Part shown: piece by piece, positions 22,413 to 49,124 of the stretch
Numbering within the stretch: the stretch's first letter is position 1
How the letters are laid out: every line of letters starts with the position of its first letter
Notes under the pieces: generated by a model
Databases searched by the model: none
What the model was told of the DNA's origin: nothing
The model's input: the letters and a program-made list of their open reading frames with translations, nothing else
DNA from: Lachnospiraceae bacterium
GTDB lineage: Bacteria; Bacillota; Clostridia; Lachnospirales; Lachnospiraceae
DNA length: 64,000 nucleotides
Direction of reading: 5' to 3'
NCBI GenBank assembly: GCA_021770245.1
Contig: JAETRI010000008.1
Location: 4,927-68,926 of the forward strand
Position numbers and translations under genes: made by a program

Positions 22413-22441
22413 ATTGTAGCAATGTCTCTTTTCTCTGTCAA
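22413..22441 (-). promoter_or_regulatory. sigma-A promoter of the marR-ABC operon
   Basis: Minus strand reads TTGACA-17 nt-TACAAT. Just downstream there are three GTTAAT(T/C) repeats (22383, 22391, 22406), a plausible MarR operator. Confidence 0.6.
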
Positions 22442-22454
22442 GGAGAAATTTGGC

Positions 22455-22525
22455 AGATGTATGCCAGAAATCACGAATGCGATTTCGCATCGCGATTCAG
22501 CTTTGTGCCGCTGCGGCACAAAGCG
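22455..22525. repeat. partial copy of the family A element
   Basis: cacgaatgcgatttcgcatcgcgattcagctttgtgccgctgcggcacaaagcg parallels gcggatacgatttcgcgtctgtgatccc...gccgcctgcggcacaaatgcc of 43276-43330. Confidence 0.45.
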
Positions 22526-22759
22526 TTCTTTTCCTATTTCATTTTATATCCGCTTTTTTCTATTATATCGCCTCCCTTTTCTAATAGCAAATGCTTTTCT
22601 GTTTTGGGTATGGCCAAATTCCTCCTGAAATAGCCTGGAAAAGCCCATAAAATCAATGATTGTACGGCTCAATAAGGCGCTTACTCCACCACTACTACAC
22701 CATTTTTTGAAAGAGCCTTGAAATGACAACAATAGAAACCGAAGGTCATTTTATCAATC

Positions 22760-42376: not shown

Positions 42377-43228
42377 TCAGCCCTTTACCCCTGCGGAAAT
42401 CTGCACCCCCTTTACCAGCCATTTTTCCGCAATGCAGTACAAAACGATCATCGGCACGATGGATACCACCGCCACTGCGCTCAACTTGGATACGAAGGTG
42501 GCATAGGTTCCTTTCGCCAGCTGGAGCCCCGCTGTCAGCGGCAGCTTTTCCACGTCGTTGATGATCACCGACGGCCACAGGAAATCGTTCCAGATGCCGG
42601 TAAAACTGAAAATCCCCACCACCACCAGAATGGGTTTCAGCATCGGGAAAACCAATTCAAAGAAGATCCGCACGTCTCCCGCCCCGTCTATCTTGCCCGC
42701 CTCTATTACGCTGTCCGGTATGCCTATCATAAACTGCTTCACAAGAAAGATGTGATAGCATCCGGCCAGCCCGGGAAAGATGAGCGCCATGGGGGTATTC
42801 ACCCAATGGAACAGGCGCATCGTATGATAAAGCGGAACGATATTCACAATGGCCGGAAAGGAAGAGATAAACAGGATCGTTAGAAAAAGCGTATCCCTCC
42901 CCTTGAATTTCAGCTTTCCGTAAGCATAGGCCGCCATGGATACAATAACCACGGAAAGTCCGGTATAGGCGGACGATATCAGTACGGAATTTCCGAACCA
43001 TTTATAAATCGGGACCTTCACGTTCTTCGGATCCAGCACCTCCATAAAGTTCTGCAGCGTCCATGTCTGCGGCAGAAACATAAAACCGCCCGCCCTGTTC
43101 AGTTCCGCATCCACCTTGAAAGCCGACAGAAAGACCCATATCATCGGAATGACGAACAGCACGGAGAAGACCAGCAGAATCAGAAAGGAAATGAGTTTTT
43201 CCGGATTTATTCTGTTTTTTTGTTTCAT
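42377..43228 (-). CDS. carbohydrate ABC transporter permease (MalG-like)
   Basis: EAA-loop region IPDSVIEAGKIDGAGDVRIFFELVFPMLKP. Trimmed to ATG 43228 (MKQKNRINPEK) behind aaggag; alternative ATG at 43243. Confidence 0.85.
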   Translation of the reverse strand: MKQKNRINPEKLISFLILLVFSVLFVIPMIWVFLSAFKVDAELNRAGGFMFLPQTWTLQNFMEVLDPKNVKVPIYKWFGNSVLISSAYTGLSVVIVSMAAYAYGKLKFKGRDTLFLTILFISSFPAIVNIVPLYHTMRLFHWVNTPMALIFPGLAGCYHIFLVKQFMIGIPDSVIEAGKIDGAGDVRIFFELVFPMLKPILVVVGIFSFTGIWNDFLWPSVIINDVEKLPLTAGLQLAKGTYATFVSKLSAVAVVSIVPMIVLYCIAEKWLVKGVQISAGVKG

Positions 43229-43240
43229 TTTGACTCCTTT

Positions 43241-43362
43241 CATGCCGTGCCCTTTGCGGCGCCGCGACGTAAAATTGCGGATACGATTTCGCGTCTGTGA
43301 TCCCACTTGGGCCGCCTGCGGCACAAATGCCGGTTGAAAATGGCCTGAGGCCATTTTCAACC
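43241..43362 (-). repeat. family A structured element (copy A1) inserted between the two permease cistrons
   Basis: catgccgtgccctttgcggcgccgcgacgtaaaattgcggatacgatttcgcgtctgtgatcccacttgggccgcctgcggcacaaatgccggttgaaaatggcctgaggccattttcaacc. Near-identical to 46952-47076 by hand alignment. Confidence 0.8.
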
Positions 43363-43373
43363 TACTCCCCCTT

Positions 43374-44267
43374 CTATTCCTTCTGCAGCCTGATGAGAAC
43401 GATCATCTGTGCAATGGAAAAAATGCCGATCACAAAGCCGAGGATCACCGCCATCGCGGACGCCATTCCCGCTATGGGGGTCCCGGAGCCGAAAGCTAAG
43501 TTCCTGATGTACATAATCAGAACAAAGGTGCTTTCCGTCGGTCCCCCGGACGTTAACATCAGAGGCTGCCCGTAAATGTTGAATTGGGACGTGGTGGCCG
43601 AAAGGATCGTGAAAAGCAGCGGGAAACGGATCAGCGGGAGATAGATATGGATCACCTTATCCATCCACCCCGCTCCGTCAATCTTGGCAGACTCGATAAC
43701 CCCCTGATCAATTCCCCCCAGGGCCGCGATGTAGATCACCATGTTCTGTCCGATGATCCACCAGATCGTCACAATGATGATGGACAGCCAGGCATAGGGC
43801 TGCTCGCCGAACCAGTTCACCGACAGCCTAAACAGCCTGTTGATGAGTCCGTAGCTGGGATTTAAAATAAAAAACCAGGTTAAAATTACCGACGAAATGG
43901 AGAAAAGCGTGGGAATGTACAGAATCCCCTGGAACAGCCTCGCCCCCTTCGGCCTGGCATAAAGAGCCACCGCAATGATGAGCGGTATCAGAATCTGGAA
44001 CGGGACGATCATGACCACAAACTGCAGGGTATTCCCGAACCCGTTCCAAAACTGCCTGTAAAAGGTGGAATCCCTATTGGTGAAAATCGTCCTGTAATTA
44101 TCCAGCCCTACCCACTGCGGTGCAGAAAACATATCCCATTTTGTAAACGAAGCGTAAACGCCATACAGAAACGGGATAAAAAAGAAAATAAGAAATATGA
44201 TCATGTGCGGCGCCAGGAAAAAAAGATGTGCCCCCGAACGCCTTTTCTTCCGCATAGTATTTCCCAT
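43374..44267 (-). CDS. carbohydrate ABC transporter permease (MalF-like)
   Basis: EAA loop IDQGVIESAKIDGAGWMDKVIHIYLPLIRF; 6 TM. Confidence 0.9.
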   Translation of the reverse strand: MGNTMRKKRRSGAHLFFLAPHMIIFLIFFFIPFLYGVYASFTKWDMFSAPQWVGLDNYRTIFTNRDSTFYRQFWNGFGNTLQFVVMIVPFQILIPLIIAVALYARPKGARLFQGILYIPTLFSISSVILTWFFILNPSYGLINRLFRLSVNWFGEQPYAWLSIIIVTIWWIIGQNMVIYIAALGGIDQGVIESAKIDGAGWMDKVIHIYLPLIRFPLLFTILSATTSQFNIYGQPLMLTSGGPTESTFVLIMYIRNLAFGSGTPIAGMASAMAVILGFVIGIFSIAQMIVLIRLQKE

Positions 44268-45972: not shown

Positions 45973-46076
45973 AAATATTTCCACCTGTGCGGTTGCAATC
46001 CAACGCCCCGTCTGCATGCCATTGATGGCAATGCAGACGGGGCGTTGGATAAGCAACCGCACAGGTGGAAATATTT
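45973..46076. repeat. 104-bp near-perfect palindrome
   Basis: aaatatttccacctgtgcggttgcaatccaacgccccgtctgcat-gccattgatggca-atgcagacggggcgttggataagcaaccgcacaggtggaaatattt. Confidence 0.85.
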
Positions 46077-46140: not shown

Positions 46141-46941
46141 TCAGCCGTCACTTTTTTCGGGGAGCGACTTTGTGAGAAAAAGGGCATAAGAGACGGTAAT
46201 TACAAACAGAACCAGCTGAAACAGCAAACGTTTTCCTAACGTTAATCCTGTTTCATCCGCGAAAGTACTCGTGATGTTTATCGCGGAATGTGTGATGATG
46301 CAGGGAAGCAGGCTCCCGCCGCGGTAAAACAGGATCACAAACAAGAAACCGATCGCAATCGCTCCCGTAACCTGAAACAGGTTTTCTGCAAGCCCCGCGC
46401 CGCTCCCGTTTACCAGATTCAGCAAATGTCCCAGGCCGAATGTAACGCTTGAAATGATAACCGCCGTTTTTACGTCGGCTCCCGTCTGCCCGTTCCGGCC
46501 GGCAGATAAATCATGATCGTGAAACCGCATAGTTTCCGCCCTGTCTTCTTCAATGCCCTTAAAAAGAAATCCCCTGAAGATAACTTCCTCTACGAAGCCG
46601 ACGCAAAGCATACAGACGATACGGCAGACAGTGCCGGCCCATGAATAATTGACCGTGATATTGTTCCAAAAATTTCTCGTACTTAAGATAAAAAGAGGCA
46701 CATAATAAAGGAACCGGCGGGCGGGTATACCGGATTTACAGAGCCCATACCGTTTCGATAAATTATTCTTCCGAATGAAATTCCAAATTATAAGGGCCTG
46801 CAGGGCGCAGAAAACGGCGCTTGCCGAGTATTCCACACCGATCATTTCGTTTAACGGGTTTGCGAAAGACTGCAGAATGCAGTAAATCACGATCCAGACA
46901 ATCGCAAAGGTCAGTTCTCTTTTTTCGTATATTTTTTTCAT
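46141..46941 (-). CDS. CPBP family intramembrane glutamic endopeptidase (CAAX protease-like)
   Basis: Motif 1 GFVEEVIFRGFLF, motif 2 FGLGHL, motif 3 ITHSAIN. There is an unusual hydrophilic insert (EDRAETMRFHDHDLSAGRNGQTGADVK) between motifs 1 and 2. Confidence 0.8.
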   Translation of the reverse strand: MKKIYEKRELTFAIVWIVIYCILQSFANPLNEMIGVEYSASAVFCALQALIIWNFIRKNNLSKRYGLCKSGIPARRFLYYVPLFILSTRNFWNNITVNYSWAGTVCRIVCMLCVGFVEEVIFRGFLFKGIEEDRAETMRFHDHDLSAGRNGQTGADVKTAVIISSVTFGLGHLLNLVNGSGAGLAENLFQVTGAIAIGFLFVILFYRGGSLLPCIITHSAINITSTFADETGLTLGKRLLFQLVLFVITVSYALFLTKSLPEKSDG

Positions 46942-46951
46942 TTTAACCCTC

Positions 46952-47076
46952 CATGCCGCGTCTTTTGCGGCACCGCGCCGTAAAATCGCGCATGCGATTT
47001 CACAGCTGTGATCCCATTTGGGCCGCCTGCGGCATAAATGCCGGGTTGAAAAAGGCCATCGGGTCTTTTTTCAACC
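46952..47076 (-). repeat. family A structured element (copy A2) between the TetR stop and the CPBP start
   Basis: catgccgcgtcttttgcggcaccgcgccgtaaaatcgcgcatgcgatttcacagctgtgatcccatttgggccgcctgcggcataaatgccgggttgaaaaaggccatcgggtcttttttcaacc. Its distal hairpin contains the TetR stop, and its proximal end abuts the CPBP SD (ggaggg). Confidence 0.8.
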
Positions 47077-47643
47077 TATTTTCTCCTGTATGGCTAATAT
47101 CGCTCCCGTATATACCCGTTCCAAATGCTTCGTTATGAGCTCCTCCTCATATTTGAAAGAGTTGTTGACAATGATGCTGGCATATCCGTGGACAAACAAC
47201 GCGAGCGTTACAAAAACCTCTTTGGTCTCCTCCATGCTCCTGTTCATGGCTTCCCGCATAGCGGAAAGGACAGGGATGAGCTCTGCGGAATTTATCATTT
47301 CAAGCAGATCGTTTTCAACGGCAAATCCCGATTGAAAAAGGAAACGGAATAAATTGGGTTCTTCCACCGCAAACCGGATATAATTTAACCCGATTCCCAG
47401 CATAACGTCTTCCTGTGTTTCCGGAATATTCATCAGATATTCCGTATGATACCGATCCGCTTTTGCATAAGCGGCCCTTTTTAGCTCCTCTATCGTCGAG
47501 AAATGATACATAACGGGCTGGGTGGAACAGTGGAGTTTTTGGGATACCGTTCTCGCATTGATGTTTTCCGCGCCTGTTTCGCGGGCGACTTCAAACGCAG
47601 CGTCAATCACCATGTCCTTTGTAATTTTTGCTTTTGGCGGCAT
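47071..47643 (-). CDS. TetR/AcrR family transcriptional regulator
   Basis: ITKDMVIDAAFEVARETGAENINARTVSQKLHCSTQPVMYHF HTH. Trimmed to ATG 47643 behind aggagg. Confidence 0.8.
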   Translation of the reverse strand: MPPKAKITKDMVIDAAFEVARETGAENINARTVSQKLHCSTQPVMYHFSTIEELKRAAYAKADRYHTEYLMNIPETQEDVMLGIGLNYIRFAVEEPNLFRFLFQSGFAVENDLLEMINSAELIPVLSAMREAMNRSMEETKEVFVTLALFVHGYASIIVNNSFKYEEELITKHLERVYTGAILAIQEKIG

Positions 47644-47736
47644 TTGCTTTCCTCCTGTTGCATTATTCATGTTATATAACATAAATTATGTTACATTCCT
47701 CCCATTTTGTCAATCCGTTTCACATCTTTTGGCAGG

Positions 47737-48060: not shown

Positions 48061-48127
48061 CGGCGATTTTCACATCCCGCATCGACATGACCGTCCTTAT
48101 CTGCTATACTGAAACATATGAATCCTT

Positions 48128-48180
48128 TCATGCCGCGTCCTTTGCAGCAGTGCGATTTCTCATCCGCGCTAATATTTCTG
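48128..48180. repeat. partial family A element (copy A3)
   Basis: catgccgcgtcctttgcagcagtgcgatttctcatccgcgc shares the catgccgcgtc.tttgc.gc head and the gcgatttc block with A1 and A2. Confidence 0.45.
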
Positions 48181-48197
48181 TCAGGAGGATAAACCCT

Positions 48198-49124
48198 ATG
48201 CCGTCTCCCGGATTACTGGAACTCAATTCCCAGCACAAAGAACTGCTGTGCAAAACCGCCAGAGCGCTTTCCGTCCCCATACGGATCGATATCGTAAGCC
48301 TCCTGCACCATAGCGCGCTGTCCGTCCAGGAGGTCGCCGAGGCCCTGGGTATCCCCAAATCCTCCGCAGGGGTGCACATCCGGATGCTGGAGGAGGCCGG
48401 CATCCTCTCCACCCAGCGTAAGATTATCGACGGAACCAGCCATAAGATATGTCAGGTGGAAAAATATCTGGTAACCATCAACCTGCGCTCTGCCGTGCCC
48501 AGCATCAATCAGGTTTCCTCCCTTTCCATCCCCATCGGGAGCTATACGGACTGTTATGCCATCTTCCCCTGTGGCCTGATTTCGGAACGCGGGTTCATCG
48601 GTATAGAAGACGATCCGGGCGCCTTTTTTCATTTCGACAGGATGCAGGCCCAGCTGATCTGGATGGCCCACGGGTTTCTGGAATATAAGGTGCCAAACCC
48701 GCTTCCCCGGCATAAGCAGTGCAAACAGCTCTCCCTTTCCATGGAGCTGTGTTCGGAGGCGCCCGGATTTGATGAGGAATATCCCTCGGATATCTATATG
48801 ACGATCAACGACAGGAGCTGCGGACACTACCATTCCCCGGGCGATTACGGAGCAAGGCGCGGCATCTATACCCCCGATTTCTGGCAGAGCGGCTTAACCC
48901 AGTACGGGAAGCTGGTCACCTGGCAGGTCAACCAGGAGGGCACTTATATCAACTCCGAAAGGGTGAGCAGCCTTTCGATCGAGGAATTGGGGATCGAATC
49001 GGAAAGCTATATCAAATTCAGGATAGAGAGCCGCAAGTCCAGCAAATGCTGCGGCGGATTCAATCTCTTTGGAGAGAAAGCCGGGGACTACGACCAGTCC
49101 ATCGTGCTGACGCTGGAGCATTGA
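48198..49124 (+). CDS. ArsR-type winged-HTH regulator with a ~220-aa C-terminal domain of unknown function
   Basis: Trimmed to ATG 48198 (aggagg 8 nt upstream). The HTH is LCKTARALSVPIRIDIVSLLHHSALSVQEVAEALGIPKSSAGVHIRMLEEAGIL. I do not recognise the C-terminal domain. Confidence 0.6.
   Translation: MPSPGLLELNSQHKELLCKTARALSVPIRIDIVSLLHHSALSVQEVAEALGIPKSSAGVHIRMLEEAGILSTQRKIIDGTSHKICQVEKYLVTINLRSAVPSINQVSSLSIPIGSYTDCYAIFPCGLISERGFIGIEDDPGAFFHFDRMQAQLIWMAHGFLEYKVPNPLPRHKQCKQLSLSMELCSEAPGFDEEYPSDIYMTINDRSCGHYHSPGDYGARRGIYTPDFWQSGLTQYGKLVTWQVNQEGTYINSERVSSLSIEELGIESESYIKFRIESRKSSKCCGGFNLFGEKAGDYDQSIVLTLEH

Follow-up and report, generated by a model that had tools for sequence, protein, structure and literature searches.

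The REP2 repeats of Neisseria, together with similar IR sequences on Borrelia plasmids, are about 120-150 nt long, lack terminal inverted repeats, form internal stem-loops and carry a ribosome-binding site (RBS) directly upstream of, and in the same orientation as, unrelated ORFs (Delihas, 2011; PMC3184786); REP2 also brings a promoter and an ATG and is present in about 26 copies (PMC3184786). MIRUs (Supply, 1997, summarised in PMC3184786) are intercistronic in operons, occupy sites that are empty in one species and filled in another, and have short flanking direct repeats; their ends reach into the stop and start signals of adjacent genes, and they are transcribed within the polycistronic mRNA (PMC3184786). 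The BOX elements of Streptococcus pneumoniae (boxA-boxB(n)-boxC) are modular, mosaic repeats of a Firmicute which form stable RNA structures and are transcribed, and their mobilising enzyme is uncertain (PMC3184786). In the putative mobile promoters, near-alike upstream regions are reused before non-homologous genes within and between genomes (Nijveen, Matus-Garcia and van Passel, 2012; PMC3575422).

The window analysed here, a 64,000-nt stretch that corresponds to positions 4927-68926 of contig C82 in the source genome G000, was taken from a Lachnospiraceae MAG of 4.285 Mb (238 contigs, 53% GC, 96% complete). Two loci of the public MAG JAETSN01, labelled "[Clostridium] symbiosum S32_Bin7" (a name that NCBI assigns to Lachnospiraceae), were 100% identical to contigs C212 and C71 of G000. 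In this window the initial annotation had described a multi-hairpin repeat, Family A, which lies between cistrons and abuts the SD of the downstream gene. We consider, with a probability of about three in four, that Family A belongs, as one subfamily, to a non-autonomous, modular and structured DNA repeat of the Lachnospiraceae that serves as a plug-in intercistronic or leader cassette. The initial annotation had seen no description of such behaviour for this sequence, and literature searches gave no account of Family A in Lachnospiraceae.

Family A copies in the window and in the source genome

Two full-length copies were present in the window, both on the minus strand. Copy A1 occupied positions 43235-43364 (121.5 bits, E 4e-34, model positions 1-135) between two ABC permease genes, and copy A2 occupied positions 46946-47079 (133.1 bits, E 2e-37) between a TetR-like and a CPBP/Rce1-like gene; both were scored with the covariance model R1, which was built from 32 other copies (not A1 or A2), and the window was searched with filters off. 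The flanking genes were those named in the initial annotation, namely a BPD_transp_1 permease gene on each side of A1, with a solute-binding protein gene further upstream, and the TetR-like and Rce1/CPBP genes around A2. The two copies had 85% column identity over about 130 nt and their likeness ended at the flanks, in keeping with the near-identity claimed for them; the claim of only two full copies did not hold, since iterated nhmmer searches of the source genome gave 253 matches (250 non-overlapping), with 102-112 full-length copies. Partial copies had been suspected at 22455-22525, 598-655 and 48128-48180, and the covariance model recovered all three on the minus strand, at 22428-22548 (degenerate or partial; 25.4 bits, E 7e-6), 593-676 (23.8 bits, E 2e-5) and 48123-48242 (20.2 bits, E 2e-4). 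The plus-strand ORFs 43116-43337 and 46953-47138 were alike only across the repeat, as had been supposed.

The Family A unit was made up of four parts: a 5′ TA(G), four hairpins, a tail of the form ATGGAGG-N-TTA, and a start codon 5-10 nt beyond. In the consensus, the 5′ end (TA-G) was followed by hairpin 1, a 16-bp A/U-rich palindrome, by hairpin 2 (CAATTTG...CAAATTG around GCCGC-AG-GCGGC), by hairpin 3 with a 13-bp stem, and by hairpin 4 (GCCGC-N7-GCGGC), after which came the tail ATGGAGGATTA. About one third of the copies had an extra hairpin, GACATGAATCGAAGATTCATGT, after hairpin 3. The arms of hairpins 1 and 3 were alike (GATTGAAAAATAAGC compared with GATGAGAAATCGC). A minority of copies, type B, had CCGGAGCG...CGCTCCGG in place of hairpins 2 and 4.

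On the minus-strand sequence of A1 and A2 the order of the hairpins was as initially described. In A1, hairpin 1 (GGTTGAAAATGGCC / GGCCATTTTCAACC; 43332-43362), recognised from sequence, fold and covariation, was a short variant of the A/U-rich 5′ hairpin, and it was followed by hairpin 2 (CATTTG...CAAGTG enclosing GCCGC-AG-GCGGC; 43304-43329), hairpin 3 (GACGCGAAATCG...CGCAATTTTACGTC; 43266-43295) and hairpin 4 (GCCGC-AAAGGGC-ACGGC; 43244-43260). The A1 tail (43226-43243) read ATG-AAAGGAG, with the SD at 43234-43240, a 5-nt spacer and the permease start ATG at 43226-43228, and the frame from 43228 encoded a BPD_transp_1 protein. On the other side of A1 (43365-43376, minus strand), the stop TAG of the upstream permease gene (43374-43376) was followed by an older SD-like tract, AAGGGGGAG, 5′ of the insertion. 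In A2, the tail ATGGAGGG with its SD at 46947-46952 was followed by TTAAA and the start ATG at 46939-46941 (46939-46954 in all, minus strand). The terminal SD was correctly spaced from the downstream start codon, and the earlier statement that the element brings an SD was therefore upheld. So was the overlap of the distal hairpin of A2 with the upstream stop codon: the TGA at 47071-47073 (minus strand), which lies inside hairpin 1, is the new stop of the TetR-like gene (ORF 47071-47682).

Copies were arranged singly, in tandem, or chained to other small modules, each of which likewise began with TAG and closed with an SD-like tail. Three full copies lay head-to-tail at 21821-22219 of contig C202, with a period of about 135 nt and a single TA common to each junction. 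For 11 copies the nearest neighbour was at least 97% identical, and some of the amplification was thus recent. About 25 matches lay inside long ORFs or away from genes.

Short frames were also seen within the element. A TTG, GTG or ATG stood at element positions 5-7 in about 93% of copies, about 6 nt past the old SD, and opened a frame of 20-24 codons whose peptide was not conserved. In A1, a TTG inside the element opened a frame (ORF 42377-43360) that ran in frame into the permease gene.

Insertion sites and neighbouring genes

Orthologous sites were compared with those of G014, the closest species, in which the flanking genes had 74-90% nucleotide identity. The A2 site was empty in G014 (...CAGGAGCAAATGAAATGAAAAAG...), where the stop codon of the TetR-like gene overlaps the start of the CPBP gene as ATGA. 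The junction read CAGGAGCAAATGAAATG in G014 and ...CAGGAGAAAA-TA-[element]-TA-AAATG (AAATGAAAAAA) in G000, and when the element and one TA were subtracted from the filled site, a spacer of exactly the G014 length was left. The left TA of A2 lay at 47077-47078 and its counterpart on the right at 46944-46945 (minus strand), with a single TG in the orthologous G014 site, and the old SD of the CPBP gene (AGGAG, 47083-47087, minus strand) was left stranded 5′ of the element. A second copy, at 19392-19544 of contig C51, was absent from G014, had TA on both sides and was inserted within the upstream stop codon; a third site, at 4659-4942 of contig C83, held two tandem copies which G014 lacked, the spacer there being GGAGGAACCTATCATG. 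At the A1 junction G014 had two different small modules instead of Family A, and one orthologous site was occupied in both species. The two modules at the A1-junction orthologue (L031:1306-1500, in contig C61 of G014) consisted of a GC hairpin and GATGGGAG between the same permease genes.

Family A is thus inserted DNA, which some orthologous sites have and others lack, and not an ancestral spacer, as the roughly 250 copies and the empty A2 site both show; the insertion proposed in the initial annotation was confirmed, and neither a count of two copies nor a sequence present at all orthologous loci was found. TA was found on both sides, where the empty site had one TA or TG, in two clean pairs, and a third pair was consistent with this; the TA rule is drawn from only these three empty/filled pairs, and duplication of TA and an element-borne 3′ TA give the same junction pattern. 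The other junctions were fuzzy or unreadable because G014 was 11-26% diverged at these loci, and the reverse comparison, of G014 copies with G000, gave no further clean junction. Target-site duplications had been put forward as something to look for; apart from the TA at the clean pairs, no longer duplication was found (flank similarity within and between copies 5.18 and 4.90 of 14, p 0.13), and nothing beyond TA appeared to be duplicated, since a left flank resembled its own copy's tail no more closely than it did the tails of others.

The position of the copies relative to genes was then counted, with all counts made on crude ORF calls. The orientation of Family A was that of the downstream gene. 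Among 203 copies with a complete 3′ end, 133 had a downstream ORF (at least 70 aa) that started 5-10 nt past the model end. An ORF of at least 100 aa started within 20 nt in the orientation of the element in 115 of 250 copies, whereas the antisense control gave 16 of 250. Of the intergenic TA sites, only 11% lay within 20 nt of a called start codon. An intact SD tail was associated with a directly following ORF (odds ratio 5.1, p 3e-7), and the subfamily with the tail CATGTCGGTTA lay mostly farther upstream of a native SD. The start codon after the element belongs to the host gene, as revealed by the empty sites of G014. Intergenic copies were located between co-directional ORFs in 128 of 227 cases and after a divergent gene in 42. 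Where the upstream ORF was co-directional (99 copies), its stop codon came from the element in 18, either as the element's own TAG or, as in A2, as a TGA at +6. The downstream genes were functionally unrelated and included those for permeases, a CPBP protease, flagellin, upp and a sulfatase.

On the left flank, T and A were found at positions 1 and 2 in 81% and 86% of copies, respectively, and purines made up at least 80% at positions -7 to -2. An SD-like 4-mer was present in the 5′ flank of 65% of copies, against a background of 21%, and the SD-like purine tract usually lay 2-5 nt 5′ of the element's TA, which is in keeping with insertion directly after an SD that was already there or after the tail of a resident module. 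Copies not beside a start codon mostly had no SD-like left flank, so the enrichment in SD-to-start spacers could owe partly to selection and not to targeting alone. A replication-strand rule for orientation was rejected: 79% of the elements and 71.5% of the genes were on the G-rich strand, only a slight excess, and orientation therefore follows the genes more than the replication strand.

We propose that the element inserts at a TA within the spacer between SD and start codon, with the TA either duplicated or shared as a core. The old SD would be severed from its start codon and the SD of the element would take over, so that the gene would stay translatable and the element could persist in operons, even where two genes overlap. 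The tail restores the target (SD plus TA), so that it could receive further modules behind it and give rise to the tandem and mosaic arrays. At A2, where the ATGA overlap was replaced by a 130-nt structured spacer carrying its own SD, we infer from this replacement that overlap-based coupling was exchanged for independent, SD-driven initiation; the initial annotation had supposed that insertion leaves translational coupling unbroken, and on this point it was not supported.

RNA structure, host range and means of spread

When 67 distinct copies were aligned to the model, 93.1% of the cells in paired columns formed standard pairs, compared with 38-49% when the partners were slid, and both-sided changes were found in 29 of 42 pairs, values reached in 0 of 500 shuffles; these figures lean towards structure because the alignment was fitted to the model. 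All 16 pairs of the hairpin 1 helix covaried across copies, and hairpin 3 showed compensatory changes such as GATGAG/CTCATC compared with GACGTG/CACGTC. RNAalifold run on a plain MAFFT alignment predicted hairpins 2-4 independently, with 8 compensated pairs. Relative to shuffled sequence, fold stability gave z values of -4.0 for A1, -4.1 for A2 and -7.9 for a consensus-like copy. In the predicted single-sequence folds the SD and start codon were unpaired, and the element contained no anti-SD segment. The element is probably transcribed as part of the mRNA, in which the hairpins would keep the SD free of pairing and would probably influence how stable the mRNA is, how it is processed or how readily ribosomes reach it.

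A match to an Rfam family had been named as a result that would speak against a new element; at the gathering threshold of Rfam 15 the only match in the window was a tRNA, and at E up to 10 the elements gave only naRNA4 (18.8 bits) and M23 (18.5 bits), far under threshold. Spurious Rfam miRNA matches (MIR7533, 49.9 bits against a gathering score of 230) were obtained with a different sequence, a near-perfect GC-rich hairpin of about 94 nt at 45975-46074 (minus strand), located after the CPBP gene and before the start of the solute-binding protein gene, which is probably the REP-like Family B of the initial annotation. A terminator scan did not flag hairpin 1 as an intrinsic terminator. The long hairpin 1 of the major subfamily (e.g., L028:1476-1503, from contig C6 of G000) contained a weak sigma-70-like match, TTGAAA-16-TATTTT (9/12), which appeared on both strands because this hairpin is a palindrome; the match was confined to one subfamily and did not occur in A1 and A2, which have the short hairpin 1.

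Outside the source genome, BLAST detected Family A in 12 of 16 genomes of the genus. The same GTDB genus comprised MAGs of 3-4.5 Mb and genomes of 6-7.6 Mb, the latter without the element. Covariance-model matches (E up to 0.001) were obtained in 23 of 150 other Lachnospiraceae genera; ten of these 23 carrier-genus genomes gave 7 to 22 scored matches, with up to 22 or more in each. The copies of other genera mostly kept the TA(G) start and the A/U-rich hairpin 1, with the hairpins in the same order and an SD-like tract 5′ of the TA; they mostly had an ATTTGTG...CACAAAT stem with a loop, CCGGAGCG, that is complementary to CGCTCCGG directly ahead of the tail, and a tail AATGGAGATTA-N-ATG. Type B copies of different genera shared about 85% identity. 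In these type B relatives CGCTCCGG lies just 5′ of the SD, and its complementarity to the loop makes a pseudoknot possible beside the ribosome-binding site.

In public data, 15 rodent-gut (rat and mouse) DNA runs contained 50% or more of the words sampled from the searched window stretch, and no RNA run was listed as containing it. Logan contigs over a 20-kb stretch with seven copies broke inside the repeats, and their summed depth was 25-60 times higher in the bins that contained elements. No match to the element was obtained in the plasmid collection. The phage collection gave three partial matches (MT836788.1, MT838414.1 and MT837007.1), which covered 42-57% of the element at 78-85% identity; all three records are unannotated "Bacteriophage sp." contigs from human faecal viromes, and the matches could stem from bacterial DNA within the viromes or from copies that phages carry.

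The conservation of the fold raises the alternative that Family A is a cis-regulatory structured RNA, riboswitch-like or a protein-binding leader, which defines a regulon, so that its copies would reflect a shared input and not mobility. Hairpins conserved through compensatory changes, a sequence and architecture kept across genera (as in type B) and the possible pseudoknot beside the ribosome-binding site would all suit such an RNA. We nevertheless find this alternative unlikely, as about 250 copies precede functionally unrelated genes, presence differs at orthologous sites of sister species, and tandem and mosaic arrays occur along with the copies in long ORFs or away from genes; moreover, an anti-SD segment and an Rfam match were lacking, and the SD was unpaired in the folds.

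A mobilising enzyme was searched for in the source genome and its relatives. The two ends of the element, TAGRTTGAAAAA... and ...GGCATGGAGGATTA (TAGRTTGAAAAATAAG... and ...CGCGGCATGGAGGATTA), were not reverse complements of each other among 112 aligned copies, and terminal inverted repeats were thus absent; the initial comparison with MITE or Correia elements, taken strictly, failed on this count, and also because no parent IS was found. Neither Y1_Tnp (PF01797; IS200/IS605), nor the IS110 DEDD transposase (PF01548), nor an IS630-type DDE_3 had a match in G000. One TnpB-like ORF was present (C186:33165) and adjoined no copy, and no parent of the form left end-cargo-right end was found, the four split-copy candidates enclosing ordinary genes (upp, sulfatase and flagellin among them). 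The Y1_Tnp profile matched in 93 of 151 Lachnospiraceae genera, was not associated with the carriers and was not found in the high-copy carriers G000, G062, G102, G116, G160 and G168. These transposase negatives come from MAGs, G000 itself being 96% complete in 238 contigs; MAG assemblies often lose IS copies, and the exclusion of Y1 is not firm for this reason.

Insertion after a short motif that also ends the element, without duplication, is the signature of IS200/IS605. Family A also inserts behind a short fixed motif and ends with the same motif, has no inverted terminal repeats, carries hairpins near both ends and has similar arms in hairpins 1 and 3. These features would suit an origin as a REP/BIME-type or IS200/IS605-derived (PATE) element. 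Such an element would travel as single-stranded DNA, with a Y1 HUH transposase (RAYT/TnpA) recognising its hairpins and cutting beside a short target. Other results weigh the other way: Y1_Tnp was not found in G000 and the other high-copy carriers in spite of its presence in most genera, the single TnpB-like gene adjoined no copy, no end-cargo-end parent was found, and orientation followed the genes and not strictly the replication strand. We judge such an origin to be quite improbable.

Spread without any dedicated enzyme would have the element copied by template switching or ectopic recombination at the SD-TA microhomology that flanks every copy, possibly through an RNA or cDNA intermediate, which is conceivable because the element is always in the transcribed orientation. 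The same kind of motif (purine tract plus TA) on both flanks, the shuffling of modules into mosaics and tandem arrays, a G014 copy with a deletion between short direct repeats, and the lack of an identified transposase in G000 among those searched (Y1_Tnp, IS110 DEDD and DDE_3) are compatible with it. However, about 5-8 nt of microhomology would be little to account for roughly 250 ectopic events, some copies have a left flank that is not SD-like, and high-identity relatives in many genera argue for an active, transferable mechanism; we regard this explanation as very improbable indeed.

A bolder form of the cassette reading, which we put forward only tentatively, is that an orientation-specific insertion system, so far unrecognised and other than IS200/IS605, IS110 and IS630, homes to the ribosome-binding region (purine tract plus TA, 5′ of start codons), and that the fold is a functional RNA module. 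In carrier Lachnospiraceae this module would reset how translation begins, or what becomes of the mRNA, for 3-5% of genes; in relatives the fold includes a loop-to-3′ pairing that ends at the SD.

Implications and comparison with known systems

If the cassette reading is right, a selfish or co-opted cassette rewrote the signals at which translation starts in roughly 115-180 genes of this genome (3-5%), and similar cassettes did likewise in about one sixth of the genera of Lachnospiraceae, a dominant family of gut bacteria. Operon stoichiometry may then differ between sister species purely by which module occupies a spacer. In practice, gene finders may call false N-terminal extensions, as with the TTG-opened frame of A1 that runs into the permease gene, and short-read assemblies break at the repeats. 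The mechanistic question is how an element without inverted ends or a recognisable transposase appears to pick, in one orientation, the few bases between SD and start codon. An element with its own replacement SD and stop codons could also be a template for portable intercistronic parts in the engineering of Clostridia.

Correia elements are bounded by terminal inverted repeats of 26 bp and can insert either way round. Like these and other TA-targeting MITEs, Family A is small, is present in many copies, has TA at both junctions and would affect the expression of neighbouring genes, but its termini are not inverted repeats and it shows a strong specificity for orientation and position. REPs are GC-rich palindromes of 20-40 nt, usually 3′ of genes and linked to a RAYT gene. 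Family A shares with the REP/BIME systems the hairpin-forming extragenic repeats and the mosaic arrays in what are probably operon transcripts, whereas it lies 5′ of start codons and no Y1 gene was found in G000. Mobile promoters are a generic bioinformatic class for promoters, while Family A reuses a structured spacer with an SD, mostly inside operons.

The likeness to BOX is that Family A is likewise modular, mosaic and structured in a Firmicute; BOX, however, is not tied to start codons and supplies no SD. As with MIRUs, Family A lies between cistrons, at sites that may be filled in one species and empty in another, with ends that overlap stop signals (the 18 of 99 copies above) and start signals (the SD 5-10 nt before the start codon). 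MIRUs differ in being 40-100 bp long, in their copy number of about 40-50, in often being tandem VNTRs with small ORFs and in being actinobacterial, whereas Family A consists of four hairpins, and the peptide encoded by its short internal frame is not conserved. With the REP2 repeats of Neisseria it shares the lack of terminal inverted repeats, the stem-loops, the position immediately upstream of ORFs and the RBS that it carries, a likeness of kind and not of sequence. Family A differs from REP2 in its copy number of about 250, in lying mostly between co-directional genes, in stopping before the native start codon, and in an unrelated sequence and phylum; its promoter-like match is at best a weak one, the 9/12 in hairpin 1 of one subfamily. 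Family A is best filed under a known kind, the RBS-carrying structured interspersed repeats: it combines traits of REP2, MIRU and BOX, and it is set apart from each of them by its sequence, its host, its copy number and the strictness with which it abuts start codons.
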